DNA of 64,000 bases from NCBI GenBank assembly GCA_946539715.1, contig CAMNHR010000038.1:14873-78872 (forward strand), read 5' to 3'. Source of the stretch: an uncultured Fibrobacter sp. GTDB taxonomy: Bacteria > Fibrobacterota > Fibrobacteria > Fibrobacterales > Fibrobacteraceae. Made by a program: the position numbers and the translations under genes. This document shows, piece by piece, positions 1,910 to 64,000 of this stretch. Each line of letters opens with the position of its first letter. Positions within the stretch are counted from its first letter, which is position 1. The notes under the pieces were generated by a model that worked only from the letters and a program-made list of their open reading frames with translations, did no database searches and had not been told where the DNA came from.

Positions 1910-2814
1910 TGAACTTTCAGGCTCGTTTAGAAGAACGCATTGCCAAGTGCGGAAACCCGATTTGCCTGGGCATGGATCCTGTGCTCAAGCTGATTGACCC
2001 CTGCTGCCCCGATGGCTCCGCCGAGGACAAGATCAAGCGTTTCTATTCCGAAATTTTGGAATGCGCATTGAAGCGGGGCGTGCAGCCGGCCGTAGTCAAG
2101 CCCAACAGCGCCTACTACGAATGCGTGAGCGTGCAAGCCATGCTGGTGCTGCAACAGCTGATTGCCGATTACCGGAGCGCAGGCATTCCGGTGATTCTCG
2201 ACGCCAAGCGCGGCGACATCGGCAAGTCCAGCGCCGCCTACGCCACCGCCGCCTACGATGTTTACAAGGCGGACGCCGTGACGGTTTCCCCCTGGATGGG
2301 CGCCGATTCCGTAGGGCCGTTTATCCGCAGTTCCGAAACGAACGCCGACGAACACGGCGCCTATGTGCTGCTCCGCACGAGCAACAAGGGCGCCCACGAT
2401 TTTCAGGACCTGCCTGTGGTCCGTAGCGACGACCCTCGGGACAAGGCCGAAGCCTTTTATTCCGTAGCCGACAAGATTATGGAATGGGACGGAAACTTCG
2501 GATACCTGGGCGCTGTCGTCGGAGCCACCCACCCCGAAGAGCTTGAAAAGATAACGGCCTACACCGTAGCCCACAAGCACGAGATTCCCTTCCTGATTCC
2601 GGGCGTGTCCATTCCGGGCGTGCCCGGCGGTCAGGGCGGCGACGCCAAGACGGTACTTACCGCCATTGCCAACGGCGGCGGCAAGCGCAAGTTCCATGTT
2701 CTCAACAGCAGTAGCGGCCTGAATTTTGCCTACCAGCGCACCGGCAACCCGGCGAACTTCGCAAGCGACTGCATCGACGCCCTCGAAAAACTCGCGGAGG
2801 CCTGCGATATTTAA
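1909..2814 (+). CDS. pyrF: orotidine 5'-phosphate decarboxylase (type 2)
   Basis: LGMDPV, VKPNSAYYE, ILDAKRGDIGKSS motifs; start overlaps upstream stop. Confidence 0.85.
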   Translation: MNFQARLEERIAKCGNPICLGMDPVLKLIDPCCPDGSAEDKIKRFYSEILECALKRGVQPAVVKPNSAYYECVSVQAMLVLQQLIADYRSAGIPVILDAKRGDIGKSSAAYATAAYDVYKADAVTVSPWMGADSVGPFIRSSETNADEHGAYVLLRTSNKGAHDFQDLPVVRSDDPRDKAEAFYSVADKIMEWDGNFGYLGAVVGATHPEELEKITAYTVAHKHEIPFLIPGVSIPGVPGGQGGDAKTVLTAIANGGGKRKFHVLNSSSGLNFAYQRTGNPANFASDCIDALEKLAEACDI

Positions 2815-2825
2815 TTCAGATTTAT

Positions 2826-2885
2826 GAATTCGGAATTAGGAATTGTTTTTTCTAATTCCGAACTCCGAATCCCGAACTCCGAACT
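2826..2885. repeat. heptamer-array inverted repeat (GAATTCG GAATTAG GAATT / TAATTCC GAACTCC GAATCCC GAACTCC GAACT)
   Basis: Exact 7-nt periodicity; the two arms are approximate reverse complements around a T-rich centre. Confidence 0.85.
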
Positions 2886-3792: not shown

Positions 3793-3819
3793 CCTAACCA
3801 CTAACCACTAATCACTAAC
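3793..3819. repeat. heptamer array (CCTAACC ACTAACC ACTAATC ACTAAC)
   Basis: Four tandem 7-nt units. Complementary in type to the array at 5653-5687, on the far side of the two minus-strand genes. Confidence 0.8.
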
Positions 3820-4616: not shown

Positions 4617-5617
4617 AGGGTCTCCACCATGTAGGGAATGCTGTCGCGGTTAGGCATGTTCCGGTTGATAATCCACATGTTGGAAATGCCCTCCATTAGC
4701 TCGTCCGCGTTTTCCAGGGTCTGTTCCGTAGATTCCATGAAGTCCGAAAGACCGATGGTAATTTTCCCGAGTTCGGTAATCATGTTGTCGGCGCGTTCCA
4801 CCGTTCCTTCAAGCTTGCCCATGAGCCCGTCCACCTTTCCGGGCAGGGGTTTCAGTTCCGTCATCATGCCCGAAACATCGTCCATCATGCCGGAGACGTT
4901 GTTCATCACGTTGTCCATCCGGCTCACGAGGGGCGGAACGGTCAACTGCAAGGTGTCCATCAGGTCCGAAACCTTGTGAATGGCCCTTGTTCCGCTGAGG
5001 GTAATGTCGTCCAGGCGCACAAGCTGTCGGTTCAGGTTGTCGTAGAGGGCACGGGAACCGAACAGGGCGCCGATGGTGGTTCCCGTATCCATGGCCATGG
5101 CCACTAGGGTGTCTGCGGCATCGATAAGCTGGTTCACGCGGCCCAGCAGTTCGTTGGCCGTCTCCAGCACGGTCTCGATGTCCTGGGCCTTGCCTGGCGG
5201 CAAGAAATCCCCGTTTTCTAGCACACGGCCTTTCCCGCGCTTGACATCTATGTTGACCACACGGGCCGAAATCACATTCTGGTCGCGAATGGCGTACACT
5301 TGGGCGCTGTCGGTAATCCAGTTCTGGAATTGCTTGCGGAGGGTGAATTCCATATAGACGCCGTCGCCCTCGATCTTCATGTCCGAAATCTGACCCACAT
5401 CTACACCGCTAATCTGCACGCGGGTGCCGGGCCTAAGTCCCAGGGCCTTGTCGAAGGTACTGTGGAGCTTGTATTCCTCCACGCCGATCATTCCGCTGGT
5501 AAAAAGCTTCGTATAGAGCACAAGTCCGAACACCATCACGGCAACCGTAAAGAAGATACCGACCAAAAGGCCGGACATCTCCATCCAGTTTATTTGCTTG
5601 ATAGGCTTGAACTTCAT
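4610..5617 (-). CDS. MlaD/MCE-domain protein
   Basis: N-terminal TM helix followed by an MCE-like core (GLRPGTRVQISGVDVGQISDM); C-terminal coiled repeats. Confidence 0.75.
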   Translation of the reverse strand: MKFKPIKQINWMEMSGLLVGIFFTVAVMVFGLVLYTKLFTSGMIGVEEYKLHSTFDKALGLRPGTRVQISGVDVGQISDMKIEGDGVYMEFTLRKQFQNWITDSAQVYAIRDQNVISARVVNIDVKRGKGRVLENGDFLPPGKAQDIETVLETANELLGRVNQLIDAADTLVAMAMDTGTTIGALFGSRALYDNLNRQLVRLDDITLSGTRAIHKVSDLMDTLQLTVPPLVSRMDNVMNNVSGMMDDVSGMMTELKPLPGKVDGLMGKLEGTVERADNMITELGKITIGLSDFMESTEQTLENADELMEGISNMWIINRNMPNRDSIPYMVETLW

Positions 5618-5832: not shown

Positions 5833-7023
5833 ATGAATTTCCTTGATTTTTTGAATAATTCAGTAACGCCCTACCATACGGTAGAGAACCTGAAGGCTTT
5901 TTTGGGTGCTGGAACAGAAAAAAAGGTCCAATTGTTCGAACGAGGCGGGGCGCTGATTGCGGTCCGTTTACCTCGGGCGGCAAGTGCAGAATCCAAGTTC
6001 AAAATAGCTCTGGCCCATACGGACTACCCGACATTGAAAATCACCCCCAATCCGGACTGTTCGGCTGCGGGCGTACGGACGCTCCACCCCGAAGTTTACG
6101 GCAGTCCCATTTTCGCCAGCTGGCTGGACCGAGATTTAGGATACGCCGGACTTTTGGCCTACGAACTGCAAGGCAAGGTACAGACAAAGTTGTTCCGTGG
6201 AGAAAAGCTGTTCCGCATTCCGCAGCTTGCAGTCCACCTGAACCGAAATGTCAATCAGGACGGCCTGAAGGTGAACCCCCAGACGGACTTGAACGCCCTG
6301 TGGACGGCCATTGACGGCAAGGAACGTTTTGCGGAGGCCTTGTCGGCTGAGCTTCCTCTGGGGGCGCGCCTTCTGGATTTCGACGTGCAGCTGTTCGACG
6401 CTCAAGCCGCACAGCTAGGCGGCTTTGAAGACGAATGGATTTATTCCGGCAGGCTCGATAACCTTTCTAGCTGCCACGCCATCGCAGAAGCCTTTGCCAA
6501 GGCGGAACCTTCGGAGAAGGATTTTCAGGTGGCCGCCTTCTTCAACAACGAAGAGGTGGGCTCCAACACTCGCGAAGGAGCCGCCGGCAATTTCTTGAAG
6601 AGTGTTTTAGATTCTTTAACTCCGAATTCCGAATTCCGAACTCCGAATTCACTCGCCCTTTCCATCGACATGGCTCATGCCTGCCACCCGAACTTTGTAG
6701 CCAAGCACGAGCCGAACCACGCCCCAGTTCTGGGCGGTGGAATTGTCCTCAAGGTCAATGCACAAAAGCGCTATGCCAGCGATGTGTTCTCTAACGCCCA
6801 GTTCAAGCTGATTTGTGAACAAAATAACATTCCGTATCAGACATTTATCATGCGCAACGACATGCCCTGCGGTTCAACGGTAGGCCCTGCCGTTTCGGCA
6901 AGCCTCGGAATCCCGACAGTGGATATCGGCGAGCCTATGCTCAGCATGCACAGCATCCGCGAGATGACTGCAAAAAAAGACCACCAAGGCATGATTGCCC
7001 TGGTGTCTGCATTTTATTTGTAG
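5833..7023 (+). CDS. M18-family (aspartyl) aminopeptidase
   Basis: SGRLDNLSSCHA, FFNNEEVGS, DMAHACHPNF, GSTVGP and DIGEPMLSMHSIRE motifs. Confidence 0.85.
   Translation: MNFLDFLNNSVTPYHTVENLKAFLGAGTEKKVQLFERGGALIAVRLPRAASAESKFKIALAHTDYPTLKITPNPDCSAAGVRTLHPEVYGSPIFASWLDRDLGYAGLLAYELQGKVQTKLFRGEKLFRIPQLAVHLNRNVNQDGLKVNPQTDLNALWTAIDGKERFAEALSAELPLGARLLDFDVQLFDAQAAQLGGFEDEWIYSGRLDNLSSCHAIAEAFAKAEPSEKDFQVAAFFNNEEVGSNTREGAAGNFLKSVLDSLTPNSEFRTPNSLALSIDMAHACHPNFVAKHEPNHAPVLGGGIVLKVNAQKRYASDVFSNAQFKLICEQNNIPYQTFIMRNDMPCGSTVGPAVSASLGIPTVDIGEPMLSMHSIREMTAKKDHQGMIALVSAFYL
6618..6650 (+). repeat. heptamer array inside the aminopeptidase CDS (AACTCCG AATTCCG AATTCCG AACTCCG AATTC)
   Basis: 33 nt, so frame-preserving; translated as LTPNSEFRTPNS; same unit family as the intergenic arrays at 2826-2885 and 12804-12835. 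Confidence 0.85.
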
Positions 7024-12803: not shown

Positions 12804-12835
12804 AATTCGGGGTTCGGAGTTCGGAGTTCGGAATT
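12804..12835. repeat. heptamer array (AATTCGG GGTTCGG AGTTCGG AGTTCGG AATT)
   Basis: Complement orientation of the AAYTCCG unit family. Confidence 0.85.
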
Positions 12836-16400: not shown

Positions 16401-16505
16401 TCATGAGTTGCAAGTTGCGAGTTATGAGTTTTAATTATGGACTAAAATATTTTTGTACTTTTCTCAGAGGCGCATAGCGCCGACTTATGACTCATGACTC
16501 AGGAC
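16401..16505. repeat. heptamer-array inverted repeat (TCATGAG TTGCAAG TTGCGAG TTATGAG ... CTTATGA CTCATGA CTCAGGA)
   Basis: Arms at 16401-16430 and 16484-16505 are complementary in unit type; the centre holds the GGCGCataGCGCC hairpin; the right arm overlaps the next start codon. Confidence 0.85.
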
Positions 16506-16715
16506 TACACAGACATAATAGATCTGCCCTACCCGAGGGACGACTGGAACTTTCTCATGAAACACCCCCGCATGAGCATGGAATCCCGTGCGAAGATTTT
16601 CGCCCCCTTTGCGGCCCTAAGGGGCCACAGCACCGCCCTTGCCAAGACCGCCGAGCAGAAAATGGACGACGTGGCCCACGAATTGACCCTGGACGACCAG
16701 GAATTCGGTGCATAA
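16494..16715 (+). CDS. YolD-like small protein (partner of Y-family polymerases)
   Basis: MSMESRAKIFAPFAALRGH matches the YolD-like core; lies directly downstream of the polymerase, as in Bacillus yqjW-yqjX and uvrX-yolD. Confidence 0.6.
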   Translation: MTQDYTDIIDLPYPRDDWNFLMKHPRMSMESRAKIFAPFAALRGHSTALAKTAEQKMDDVAHELTLDDQEFGA

Positions 16716-22420: not shown

Positions 22421-22564
22421 TAAGGGATTAGGGGCTAGAGACTAGAGATTAGGATTTAGTGAACAAGAAACACGCACTTCGTGCGTTTGGAACGAATGGC
22501 GAAACCATGGTATTTTTCTCTAACCCCTAAATCCTAGATCCTAACCCCTAGATCCTAATCTCTG
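22421..22564. repeat. heptamer-array inverted repeat (TAAGGGA TTAGGGG CTAGAGA CTAGAGA TTAGGAT ... CTCTAAC CCCTAAA TCCTAGA TCCTAAC CCCTAGA TCCTAAT)
   Basis: Arms at 22421-22461 and 22518-22564 flank the hairpin AAACGCACttcGTGCGTTT; lies in the divergent promoter region between the DMT gene and glk. Confidence 0.85.
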
Positions 22565-43449: not shown

Positions 43450-44238
43450 TTAGTTTCCTGTTGGGACAGGAGGCATGACAACACTATATTTTCCGTTATT
43501 GCATTGATACATGCAGTCGGCAGCACTGCTCCAGACGCTTATGGTAAGTTGTGCGACTTTTCCGTTTTCTTTACTGCAGCTAAACCCGTTGATGGGGTGT
43601 GTTCCGCAGCTATAGTTGGGCCGCTGGCAGCTGCTCCCGGGAGGGCATTTGTCGATGGTACTTTTATATTTCCAATAGCCTTCGTTGCAGATAAGGTTTA
43701 TTTCATTGACGGTCATTTCATCGCCTGATGGAGTGCAGTTGTCTCCGATGATGGCGAGCCTCCACCCATTATTGCGGCATACGGCATAAGCGCCTGTTTC
43801 GCAGTCCTTGACCGTGTCATAGTCTTGGCAGGTGCCTCCGTCTACATCGGAAACATGCTTGCAAGTTTCTTCTGTGCTGGAGCTGCTATTGACGCAATAC
43901 TCCGTCAATCCCTTGTTGCAAAGTTGTGTTGCGGAGTAGCATTCTAGGGTGAGGGCTTGGCAGGTTACGGCCAAAGACGAACTGGAATTGTCGTCAAGGG
44001 ATGCCGATGAACCGCCTTCGGTTGCCGAACTTTCTGCGGTTGCGGAACTGTTGACTGTTGCCGAGCTTTCTGCTGTTGCGGAGCTCTCGATGTTGTCAGA
44101 GCTATCGCCACCGTTGCTTTCAGAGGAAATTTCTTCGGACAAGGGCTCGGTGGCGCTACTGCTGTCGTCGCAGGCCGTAAGCGTAAAGGCCAGTGCTGCT
44201 GCGGCAAACCCGCAAGCGATTTTTGTAAGATGTTTCAT
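43450..44238 (-). CDS. Ser-rich / Cys-rich lipoprotein, paralog of 44253..45119
   Basis: AGGAGA RBS; lipobox FTLTAC plus DDSSS; repeated C-x-N-G-x-W/Y modules (CRNNGW, CNEGYW, CNNGKY). Confidence 0.65.
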   Translation of the reverse strand: MKHLTKIACGFAAAALAFTLTACDDSSSATEPLSEEISSESNGGDSSDNIESSATAESSATVNSSATAESSATEGGSSASLDDNSSSSLAVTCQALTLECYSATQLCNKGLTEYCVNSSSSTEETCKHVSDVDGGTCQDYDTVKDCETGAYAVCRNNGWRLAIIGDNCTPSGDEMTVNEINLICNEGYWKYKSTIDKCPPGSSCQRPNYSCGTHPINGFSCSKENGKVAQLTISVWSSAADCMYQCNNGKYSVVMPPVPTGN

Positions 44239-55303: not shown

Positions 55304-55506
55304 CCAAATTCGGGCTATTCGGTTATACTATTTTTCTTTGGCTAGTAATAGTTTTTTGCTATAACGCGACTAAATGACTAAATGATATTGCACTGTTTCC
55401 AAAAAAATTTCTAAGTGTAGCCGAGATGTAAATTTTCACTTTTTCCTCCGTACAAAAAAAAAGTGGAACTTTGTACAAAATAACCACTGAGGCTATTTCT
55501 GCTGCG

Positions 55507-62736: not shown

Positions 62737-63309
62737 ATGAGCCTGACCGTCGAACGCGCAAAAGAAATCAGCAAGGGCCACGTGACCGAAGAATCGCTGG
62801 TCATCCATTCCCTCAACGTATGCTATGCCATGGGCGCGATGGCCAAGCACTTCGGCGAAGATGTGGAACATTGGCAGGCAGTGGGCTACCTGCACGATTA
62901 CGACTACCAGGAATTCCCCGAAGAACACCTGCAGCACACCGAAAAGGAACTGCTCGCACAAGGCGTTTCCGAAGAAGACGTGCGCGCCATTTTAGCGCAC
63001 GGTTTTGAAATCGTGAACCAGGTGGAACCCAAGACCAACATGGAAAAGAGCCTGTTCACCGTGGACGAACTCACCGGAATCATCCAAGCCTGCGCGAGAA
63101 TGCGCCCCAACGGCATCCTGGACCTGGAAGTGAAAAGTTTCGTGAAGAAGTTCAAGGACAAGAAATTCGCCGCCAAATGCAACCGTGACTACATTCTGAA
63201 AGGCTGCACCCTGCTCGGCATGGACGTGAAAGACGTCGCCGCCATCTGCATCGAGGGCATGCGCGAACACGCCGCAGAAATTGGCCTGGCAGGGAACGCC
63301 GGGGCATAG
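62737..63309 (+). CDS. HD-domain metal-dependent phosphohydrolase
   Basis: HSLNV...GYLHDYDY (H..HD) motif. Confidence 0.7.
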   Translation: MSLTVERAKEISKGHVTEESLVIHSLNVCYAMGAMAKHFGEDVEHWQAVGYLHDYDYQEFPEEHLQHTEKELLAQGVSEEDVRAILAHGFEIVNQVEPKTNMEKSLFTVDELTGIIQACARMRPNGILDLEVKSFVKKFKDKKFAAKCNRDYILKGCTLLGMDVKDVAAICIEGMREHAAEIGLAGNAGA

Positions 63310-63341
63310 AAAAAACGTTTTTTCCTCAAAAACGGCATTAC

Positions 63342-63370
63342 TTGACAATTTTTCCTGCTTAATATATATT
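63342..63370 (+). promoter_or_regulatory. sigma-70-like promoter TTGACA-17 nt-TATATT, 4 nt before the first ATGTCGG unit
   Basis: -35 at 63342-63347 and -10 at 63365-63370. Confidence 0.6.
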
Positions 63371-63374
63371 TAGA

Positions 63375-63434
63375 ATGTCGGAAAAGATGTCGGATTAAAT
63401 GTCGGAATGAATGTCGGTAAAAATGTCGGATAAA
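63375..63434 (+). repeat. five tandem 12-bp units ATGTCGGNNNNN spanning the Fic start
   Basis: ATGTCGGAAAAG ATGTCGGATTAA ATGTCGGAATGA ATGTCGGTAAAA ATGTCGGATAAA. Units 2 and 3 end in in-frame stops; units 4 and 5 open the Fic ORF. Confidence 0.95.
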
Positions 63435-64000
63435 TACGCGCCTCCATTTAAGATTAATACGGCGATAGTTAACCTTGCGGCAGAGATTTCGGCCCTGGTT
63501 GAACGAGTCGCAATCCGGTTGGAACAATCGGATAGTTTACGCCTGCGTCGAATAAACCAAATTCAGAGTATCCATAGTTCCTTGGCGATAGAAGGCAATT
63601 CGCTTTCAGAAGGCCAGGTGTCCGACATTATTGACGGCAAGCGCATTATCGCTCCCGAACGAGAAATCCTCGAAGTGAAGAACGCCTTACGGACTTATGA
63701 ACTCTATCCTTCATTAAAGGCGTTTTCGGAAAAGGATTTGCTCAAGGCTCATGCCGTAATGATGCAAGGTATAATTCCCGATGCCGGGAGATACCGAAAT
63801 TGCAACGAAGGTGTATTCAAGGGGCGCAAATGCGTCCATTTTGCGCCGCCACCCAACATGGTCCCGATCTTGATGAAAAATCTTTTTTCGTGGTTAAAAA
63901 ACAGCAAAGACCATTGGCTGGTTCGGTCGTGCGTTTTCCATTATGAATTTGAATTTATTCATCCCTTCCGAGACGGGAATGGCAGAATAGGCCGTTTGTG
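63423..64000 (+). CDS. Fic-family protein (AMPylase-type), 3' end beyond the window; start at 63411 or 63423
   Basis: My own translation: MSDKYAPPFKINT...SIHSSLAIEGNSL (inhibitory-helix-type S...EGN) ... FEFIHPFRDGNGRIGRL (Fic motif HPFxxGNGR). Not in the ORF track because the frame runs off the window. Confidence 0.85.
   Translation, partial: MSDKYAPPFKINTAIVNLAAEISALVERVAIRLEQSDSLRLRRINQIQSIHSSLAIEGNSLSEGQVSDIIDGKRIIAPEREILEVKNALRTYELYPSLKAFSEKDLLKAHAVMMQGIIPDAGRYRNCNEGVFKGRKCVHFAPPPNMVPILMKNLFSWLKNSKDHWLVRSCVFHYEFEFIHPFRDGNGRIGRL

Follow-up and report, generated by a model that had tools for sequence, protein, structure and literature searches.

A tandem array of ATGTCGG units between the promoter and the start codon of a Fibrobacter Fic gene is a candidate autoregulatory operator

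The window (the whole 64,000-nt stretch of DNA analyzed) ends in an HD-domain gene, a promoter-like site, an array of short direct repeats and the beginning of a Fic gene, all on the + strand. The HD-domain gene (62737-63309; a 190-aa ORF with a Pfam HD match) is the conserved left neighbor of the locus, and a variable region of defence genes opens directly after its stop codon. An AT-only palindrome read from the sequence, AAAAAACGTTTTTT (63310-63323), could serve the HD gene as a weak terminator; a terminator scan made no call at this palindrome, which belongs to a 65-nt segment unique to one of the two haplotypes described below (haplotype A). Among the assembled RNA contigs, one spans the HD gene, the array and Fic, and others break at the shared repeat units. 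The sigma-70-type promoter-like site, TTGACA-17 nt-TATATT (63342-63370), agrees with the consensus at 11 of 12 positions. Its -10 box (63365-63370) ends 4 nt before the first unit, and the array occupies the entire interval between this box and the Fic start codon.

Sequence reading placed five head-to-tail 12-bp units at 63375-63434, each consisting of ATGTCGG plus five variable bases: unit 1 (ATGTCGGAAAAG, 63375-63386, spacer AAAAG), unit 2 (ATGTCGGATTAA, 63387-63398, spacer ATTAA), unit 3 (ATGTCGGAATGA, 63399-63410, spacer AATGA), unit 4 (ATGTCGGTAAAA, 63411-63422, spacer TAAAA) and unit 5 (ATGTCGGATAAA, 63423-63434, spacer ATAAA), all on the + strand. The whole array (63374-63434, + strand) has the consensus R-ATGTCGG-N4 and is the proposed operator for the wHTH of the Fic protein. 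The TGTCGG cores start at 63376, 63388, 63400, 63412 and 63424. TRF returned a period of 12, 5.1 copies and a score of 73. ATGTCGG was found 20 times in the window, compared with 7.6 ± 2.9 times in shuffles, and five of these copies were in exact 12-nt register at the array. Core positions were intact in 35 of 35 cases, whereas the 5-nt spacers had diverged, and neighboring units shared only 7-9 identical nucleotides in a row. The units are direct repeats in a single orientation and do not form an inverted-repeat (palindromic) site. Rfam gave no match on 63200-63600.

The array can be read in two frames. Its ATG frame gives MSEKMSD*, MSE* and then MSVKMSDKYAPPF..., continuing into the Fic ORF. 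The second frame, one base upstream, reads AAT GTC GGN NNN (NVGK DVGL NVGM NVGK NVG) and is open over 63374-63430 (19 codons), between TAG (63371-63373) and TAA (63431-63433). The original prediction had missed this NVG frame. It had described five tandem 12-bp ATG TCG G units at the start of the Fic ORF, which sequence reading, TRF and the motif count all recovered, and a TTGACA-17-TATATT promoter ending 4 nt before unit 1, which stands with the consensus match given above. Translation also bore out that the first ATG yields MSEKMSD and a stop, with only units 4 and 5 running into the Fic ORF. The absence of a Shine-Dalgarno sequence held for units 4 and 5, neither of which is preceded by a GGAGG-like sequence.

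ORF translation showed the 5′ part of a SoFic-like class II Fic gene (63423-64000, + strand), which runs off the window. Since homologues begin M(x)Y(x)PPF, its start codon is probably the unit 5 ATG (MSDKYAPPF...); the alternative is the unit 4 ATG at 63411. Residues 53-58, SLAIEG (63579-63596, + strand), have the form (S/T)xxxE(G/N) of the inhibitory-helix motif as quoted in PMC10628234. Lying N-terminal to the Fic domain on the same chain, this motif marks a class II, self-inhibited Fic. The catalytic motif, HPFRDGNGRIGR (63960-63995, + strand), fits HxFx(D/E)GNGRxxR. We took the full-length protein from contig L001, which equals the window sequence through at least 63509. It is 327-331 aa long and ends in a wHTH, with Pfam matches to Fic (5e-22) and to HTH_DeoR/HTH_11 at residues 274-320. 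The PADLOC SoFic model matched it over its full length (8e-46), and the NCBIfam SoFic equivalog NF046030 scored 53 bits against a cut-off of 550. We class it from these profiles as a relative of SoFic, not as its equivalog or orthologue.

The AF2 model of the Fic protein (pLDDT 87.5) predicted a wHTH with helices H273-284, H290-297 and H301-313 and a beta hairpin at 317-330. In this model, T301-R302-T-I-E305-R306 starts helix 3 of a canonical wHTH, and linker residues 260-267 are predicted to be disordered at the place where other family members carry the array. The structural neighbors were the Fic-wHTH proteins 4rgl, 7cb8, 8cil (CbFic2), 3eqx (SoFic) and 7xux, the last of which we take to be CccR. 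The window Fic has the family wHTH (...VTTRTIERDLAKLQDNGILERAGSKRDGYWIVK) and a linker without an array. The neighborhood of the Fic gene, which lies within or next to type I RM operons accompanied by Abi genes, is what bears on its putative anti-phage or AMPylation activity.

An exact-sequence lookup of the HD protein (62737-63309) led to 11 rumen-metagenome contigs that encode the identical protein, with two downstream haplotypes. Haplotype A (L001 and L006-L009) was the same as the window over the compared stretch, L008 differing at a few bases, and showed the gene order Fic (331 aa, Fic plus HTH_DeoR/HTH_11), hsdR, a 188-aa gene, AbiEii, hsdS and hsdM. Haplotype B (L002-L005) was without Fic, yet an ATGTCGG array began with the final base of the HD stop codon; this homologous array had three units in the same order as haplotype A (AAAAG, ATTA(A), AATGA) and was followed by a different type I RM/Abi set (type I RM, ATPase and AbiJ). 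Both haplotypes were present in run X2. F. succinogenes RUG10152 (L050) also had a haplotype-B-like array, located after a RelA/SpoT-like gene and before Wadjet-like genes, and no Fic. Since haplotype B and L050 have the array but no Fic, the array either is older than the Fic junction of the window or does not depend on it. The stretch that follows the HD gene is a hot spot of defence genes. No second array (att-like flank) was found past the defence island in L001-L004, with 10 kb downstream covered. An operator reading of the haplotype B and L050 arrays, which have no adjacent Fic-wHTH gene, would need a trans-acting paralogue or relic status.

Rumen metagenomes covered units 1-3 at a depth 30-70 times that of the flanks, and these units are therefore common to many rumen Fibrobacter arrays. 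The unit number was 5 in six contigs from different samples (the window, L001 and L006-L009), and one contig of run X5, approximately 2% diverged, had 4 units, with exactly unit 2 missing. These counts were taken from assembled contigs, in which minor variants are invisible, and the contigs at hand showed no within-sample length heterogeneity of the array. Change in unit number appears to be slow evolutionary variation rather than a contingency switch.

The best 120 of 7,997 scored homologues were compared. Those of the Fibrobacter clade (62-98% identity) had no internal arrays, and many of their N-termini were called as MSVKMSDKY..., MSDKMSMKMSDKY... or MKMSEKY.... In every Fibrobacter-clade homologue, 5-7 units separated a conserved TTGAC-17-TATATT promoter from the start codon. 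The conserved cassette consists of CTACTTGACN, 17 nt, TATATT, TAGRA, 5-7 units at 11-12 nt and the start codon, and was seen in the DNA of nine out of nine distinct homologous proteins (thirteen contigs; L368-L383). It occurred in three upstream contexts. In one of them, the 3′ end of hsdR, the -35 box lies inside the coding sequence, and the stop codon TAA is in the spacer, directly before the -10 box; the second is the HD terminator region, to which the window belongs, and the third is other sequence. Where single units had decayed, unit phase was kept (spacings of 12, 24 or 36). Homologous units may begin with TTGTC, GTGTC or CTGTC; the conserved part is TGTC(GG), not ATG. External units were predicted for Bacteroidales homologues without internal arrays (P0095 and P0078; 57% identity) and were found in both: the arrangement is TGTCGG-N9-TATATTTG-TGTCGGAATAA-TGTCGG...ATG (also rendered TGTCGG-N9-TATATTTG-TGTCGGAATAATGTCGG...ATG), with the units flanking a Bacteroidetes-type -7 box and one unit upstream of the box.

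A genome scan (one genome per species, three ATGTCGG at 12-nt spacing) yielded at least 120 loci in many phyla, with approximately 0.3 expected by chance, as estimated from collection size. Among the matches listed, 56 loci had the array inside a gene, approximately 70-80 codons before the stop codon and directly before a C-terminal wHTH. The N-terminal parts of these internal-array proteins were either Fic or SLFN_AlbA_2 plus HATPase_c_4. Another 32 high-GC hits among the matches listed (Streptomyces and others) were unrelated simple repeats and were set aside. R-ATGTCGG-N4 was present in 3-8 copies in Bacteroidota, Firmicutes, Spirochaetes, Verrucomicrobia, Proteobacteria, Patescibacteria and Fibrobacter. 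The scan also returned arrays outside genes: three units 57 nt before a Fic-wHTH gene (L077), TATAAT followed by four units, AGGAGG and the start of an AlbA_2 gene (L087), units 5′ of a gene (L083), and units 1-14 nt after a stop codon (L044 and L113). At L104, AATGTCGGTTTGAATGTCGGTATATAA-TTGACA-TTTGTCGGTATACTGTG-TATGAT, two units abut the -35 box and one is in the spacer. Two or more exact TGTCGG within -200 to +30 of the start were found in 10 of 85 internal-array genes, of which L104 is an example, with an estimated 0.13 genes or so expected by chance. These 10 genes contradict the idea that a gene has its units either inside or outside and never in both places. Placement in the family is thus mostly inside the gene, as pre-wHTH linker code, and in a minority at the promoter or just past the stop codon. 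The window is, on these comparisons, one arrangement of a putative family-wide cis element of SoFic-like and AlbA_2/HATPase_c_4-wHTH genes.

For a metagenome scan, we used the pattern ATGTNGG-N4-RAYGTNGG-N4-RAYGTNGG-N{82,112}-MGNACNNTNGARMG, which leaves the Val codon free and takes the R-T-x-E-R of the wHTH as its anchor. In 121 arrays, on contigs with a GC content of 0.24-0.64, all 444 units used GTC for Val. The Gly codon of the same 444 units was GGT in 291, GGA in 81, GGG in 67 and GGC in 5, and many different residues occupied the fourth codon. A control with the unanchored pattern in viral contigs gave all four Val codons, in unrelated repeats, and the three arrays with wHTH context found there all used GTC. 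Search bias was rejected as the source of the codon conservation, given that the third Val base was free and that the unanchored control returned all four codons. The preference for AAT over AAC is partly biased, AT being fixed in the first unit of the pattern, and no weight is placed on it.

The frame of the array relative to the wHTH was (N/D)VGx in 105 of 121 arrays and M-S-x-K/E in 15. The matches listed from the genome set were split 50 to 6 between the (N/D)VGx and MSxK frames. Examples of the MSxK frame, which is also that of the window Fic, are L305 (MSEKMSEKMSEK-ILWLIK...RTIER) and L341 (a Fic with ...ASK-MSEE-MSEE-MSEE-KVLK). Because one DNA core is maintained with two translations and at any GC content, selection acts on R-ATGTCGG and not on the peptide. 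Internal translation starts at the array ATGs were rejected as an explanation, since 105 of the 121 arrays have these ATGs in a different frame from the wHTH. TGTCGG was on the sense strand in every array seen, whether internal, 5′ or 3′.

The core sequence covaried with the predicted recognition helix. Loci with RTIER (the window, L368, L370, L371 and L382) had 18 TGTCGG and no TGTCAT cores, whereas loci with RTIAR (L372, L375, L377 and L379) had no TGTCGG and 11 TGTCAT cores. The RTIDR locus, L380, had a mixture of both. The split between RTIER and RTIAR was significant (Fisher, P = 3e-8), although the loci are related and independent events are thus few; the covariation may represent one evolutionary event maintained across the clade. 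In the RTIAR clade of the Fibrobacter homologues, GG gave way to AT in every unit. Other pairings were RTIIR with ATGTCAC (L333) and KTIER with ATGAGGG (L262). Among the best 120 of 7,997 homologues, each helix type had its own tetrapeptide and hence its own 12-nt repeat: R(T/Q)xER was paired with the linker repeat (N/D)VGx, R(G/A)xEK with KFG(I/V), LGGIKK with (D/N)KVA, DRM(V/I)R with NK(V/I)P, RKTIQR with (D/N)VAD, and PSAIQK with GQKS.

Nucleotide-level constraint, frame independence, promoter placement and helix covariation support the array as a candidate operator. We propose, with a probability of roughly 0.65, that the five units are a tandem operator bound by the wHTH of the Fic protein itself, resulting in autorepression. 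Each 12-bp unit, with its 7-bp core (A)TGTCGG, would be the docking site for one Fic molecule; the molecules would bind head to tail through their wHTH domains and cover +1 to about +60. Because the array fills the interval from the -10 box to the start codon, bound Fic would block initiation or promoter escape and keep the expression of a potentially toxic AMPylase low (negative autoregulation). The ATGs, stops and short frames of the array (MSEKMSD* and MSE*) would then be by-products of the core and not the selected feature. Physical binding by the wHTH, repression as its outcome and the position of the transcription start are all predictions from sequence. What had looked like a row of start codons is recast here as an ordinary regulatory device, in which a self-inhibited Fic toxin appears to throttle its own promoter through five sites whose motif is conserved irrespective of genome GC content and reading frame.

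The same repeats might instead act in the mRNA, with AUGUCGG units binding the wHTH or another factor, or with upstream ORFs controlling Fic translation. This reading draws on the invariable sense-strand position of TGTCGG and on the expectation that the window array would make up the entire 5′ UTR, with upstream ATGs that open MSEKMSD* and MSE*; arrays that share one orientation and, when external, are mostly transcribed leave room for such a role and count against an operator. However, the Bacteroidales unit upstream of the -7 box is not transcribed from that promoter, nor are the Firmicutes units (two upstream of the -35 box, one in the spacer) from theirs. The upstream ATGs are not conserved, many units having TTGTC or GTGTC, and no Rfam match was found. 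DeoR-type wHTH domains bind DNA, and promoter DNA is the target of both CccR and SoFic. We consider an RNA-level element unlikely. It is less likely still that the array is a functionless relic, the leftover linker code of a destroyed X-(NVGx)n-wHTH gene that the Fic ORF merely abuts. The 19-codon open NVG frame with stops on either side, the identity of the DNA to that of coding arrays and the Fic-less arrays of haplotype B and L050 would be expected of such a remnant. A remnant would not be expected to keep its core intact at 35 of 35 positions while the spacers diverged, to stay within a promoter-array-Fic cassette that is retained in homologues with as little as 62% protein identity, across three upstream contexts and with an 11-12-nt phase, or to undergo the concerted GG-to-AT change of all units in the RTIAR clade.

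The array could also be a recombination junction, i.e., a hot spot or landing pad for the exchange of defence cassettes beside the HD gene. The divergence among haplotypes A and B and L050 sets in at or inside the array, and the defence sets behind it differ (Fic, type I RM and AbiE; type I RM, ATPase and AbiJ; RelA/SpoT-like and Wadjet-like genes, respectively), and the 30-70-fold depth of units 1-3 agrees with such exchange. We nevertheless give this function a slim chance, as the arrays have no linked recombinase, the 10 kb downstream in L001 contain no second array, and most arrays elsewhere are inside intact genes. Recombination at the array and an operator are compatible, because shared repeats would favor homologous exchange. 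The original prediction had regarded the units as duplications of the Fic start-codon region, a view contradicted by the arrays without Fic and by the conservation of TGTC(GG) rather than ATG. It had further proposed that slipped-strand gain or loss of 12-bp units alters the 5′-terminal ATG of a leaderless transcript and thereby switches Fic on and off. The promoter ending 4 nt before unit 1, the lack of a Shine-Dalgarno sequence and the one diverged strain with 4 units instead of 5 would suit this switch. However, units with unlike spacers and only 7-9 identical bases in a row are a poor substrate for slippage, and 12 nt cannot shift the frame. The 4-unit form occurs in an approximately 2% diverged strain and not within a population, the six other contigs having 5 units each; the ATG is not conserved in homologous units, and the model is inapplicable to the intragenic arrays and Bacteroidetes-type promoters that bear the same element. 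Such switching is highly improbable. The alternative that the same prediction had offered, iterated binding sites for a regulator, gained support from the comparative evidence.

Intragenic arrays could serve as a second operator, a roadblock or a platform gating the enzyme. A broader reading, which we put forward tentatively and hold to be rather doubtful, is that the array is a self-encoded, dual-use operator general to SoFic-like Fic-wHTH and Schlafen/AlbA_2-HATPase_c_4-wHTH proteins, with its occupancy possibly part of a defence switch. The linker-coding DNA would double as an array of wHTH sites, so that each protein would sit on its own gene. DNA binding would gate the enzymatic domain, and the toxin would be released or activated if this DNA were lost or competed for during phage attack; CbFic2 is stimulated by DNA binding (PMC10628234). 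If the motif is the cognate wHTH site, it would define, for the first time, a candidate site for the wHTH of SoFic-like and AlbA_2-type defence proteins. It would also imply a base-to-residue specificity rule (the Glu of RTIER versus GG) and a clear case of overlapping protein and DNA-binding codes. For annotation, it would mean that tetrapeptide-repeat linkers are cis elements and that gene callers misplace starts in 5′ arrays. The literature searched for the repeat peptides, the DNA motif and AlbA_2/HATPase_c_4 repeats held no relevant description, and intragenic dual-coding ATGTCGG/NVGx arrays appear to be undescribed.

Autoregulation by Fic-wHTH proteins is already known; a tandem direct-repeat operator spanning the -10 box to the ATG, as predicted here, would be new. 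CccR, a Fic-HTH toxin of Yersinia pseudotuberculosis, represses its own promoter, binding as a dimer to two 10-bp inverted repeats that are 26 bp apart at the -35 and -10 boxes (PMC9755527). It resembles the window Fic in being a class II Fic with a C-terminal HTH of the same fold family and with sites in its own promoter region. The window differs in having five tandem direct repeats of another motif, with a 12-bp period, downstream of the -10 box; that the studied precedent binds inverted repeats as a dimer counts against an operator of direct repeats. Negative autoregulation was shown for CccR and is only predicted for the window Fic. SoFic, an anti-phage protein of Shewanella oneidensis, shows specific binding to the 100 bp that precede its own start codon (bioRxiv 10.64898/2026.07.09.737422). 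Its architecture (N-terminal helix, Fic domain and wHTH) is common to the window Fic, but no site motif has been defined and no tandem array reported for SoFic.

The layout of the array also has parallels outside the Fic proteins. The pho box of the PhoB/OmpR type consists of tandem direct repeats with a 7-bp core, a 4-bp spacer and an 11-bp period. The array likewise combines seven conserved bases with a short variable spacer, and its units follow one another head to tail with a period close to one helical turn (11-12 bp for external arrays). However, the window wHTH is DeoR/HTH_11-like and without a receiver domain, there are 5-8 units versus 2-4, and the sites can fall inside the coding sequence of the regulator itself. 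Simple-sequence contingency loci, which phase-vary by slipped-strand mispairing, resemble the array in placing short tandem repeats where a gene begins, and one strain differed by exactly one unit; the array differs from them in its non-identical units, a period that is a multiple of three, a position downstream of the -10 box and a core conserved across phyla. Intragenic auxiliary operators are represented by lac O2 within lacZ and gal OI within galE. As in these systems, a putative repressor site lies in a coding region downstream of a promoter, although the arrays are in the regulator's own gene, are tandem and are translated in two frames as a linker. Looping is only a conjecture, and the 10 of 85 family genes that have promoter units together with an internal array are those with sites at both positions.

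In most homologues on the contigs that carry Fibrobacter-clade Fic genes (L368-L381), the Fic gene was part of a type I restriction-modification (RM) operon, where it lay between hsdR and hsdM and shared their orientation. In these operons the final hsdR codons (…QLYLTDDVA*) contained the -35 box from which Fic would be transcribed, and the hsdR stop codon was located inside the promoter spacer, immediately 5′ of the -10 box. Automatic gene callers chose differing ATGs of the array of 12-bp units as the start of Fic, with called lengths of 327, 329, 331, 335, and 339 aa (homologues P0001-P0039 and P0074). The gene call of P0074 ran through the upstream array, resulting in the N-terminus NNVGIIDGLNVGTN-MYRPPF. 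Thus, the database N-termini of the SoFic-like Fic family are unreliable.

Among the best 120 of 7,997 scored homologues, the other Fic subfamilies with a C-terminal winged helix (P0047 and P0071-P0120) carried different tetrapeptide repeats at the same linker position: KFGI/KFGV, DKVA/NKVA, NKVP/NKIP, DVAD/NVAD, and GQKS. Each repeat type was paired with its own recognition-helix sequence, which suggests that several helix/site pairs may exist in parallel. Composite arrays were found at two metagenome loci from the array scan (L298 and L325), each with three AAGTTCGGGGAA units followed directly by four AATGTCGGGGAA units. The TGTCGG array of F. succinogenes RUG10152 (L050, positions 5330-5365) was interrupted by three (A/T)TGTCAT units (two ATGTCAT and one TTGTCAT). 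Composite arrays may serve two specificities.

The site directly 3′ of the HD gene (window 63310 onward) is a hot spot for defense islands. At least three alternative gene contents were observed behind this gene when the window, the haplotype A contig (L001), the haplotype B contigs (L002-L005), and L050 were considered: Fic with a type I RM system and AbiEii; a type I RM system with ATPase_2 and AbiJ; and a RelA/SpoT-like gene with an array and Wadjet-like genes. The latter, tentatively named from their sequences, resemble JetA and JetB.

Short tandem repeats with a 7-bp period and approximately four copies per site were numerous in the window (2813-2885, 3794-3819, 6621-6650, 12806-12832, 16482-16506, 22526-22558, and 35554-35583/35637-35662), most of them at gene boundaries; the only 8-bp-period site among these repeats (55368-55385) had two copies. 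The repeated sequence differed between sites (TCCGAAT/TTCGGAG, CTAACCA, GACTCAT, CCTAAAT, and GGTATTA/ACCTAAA), and two of the short tandem repeats occurred as inverted pairs. Repeats of this kind may be spread between genes throughout the genome of this Fibrobacter-like organism; no connection with the array of 12-bp units emerged. The top TRF score in the window (101) was that of a tandem repeat with an 18/36-bp period at 44021-44103.
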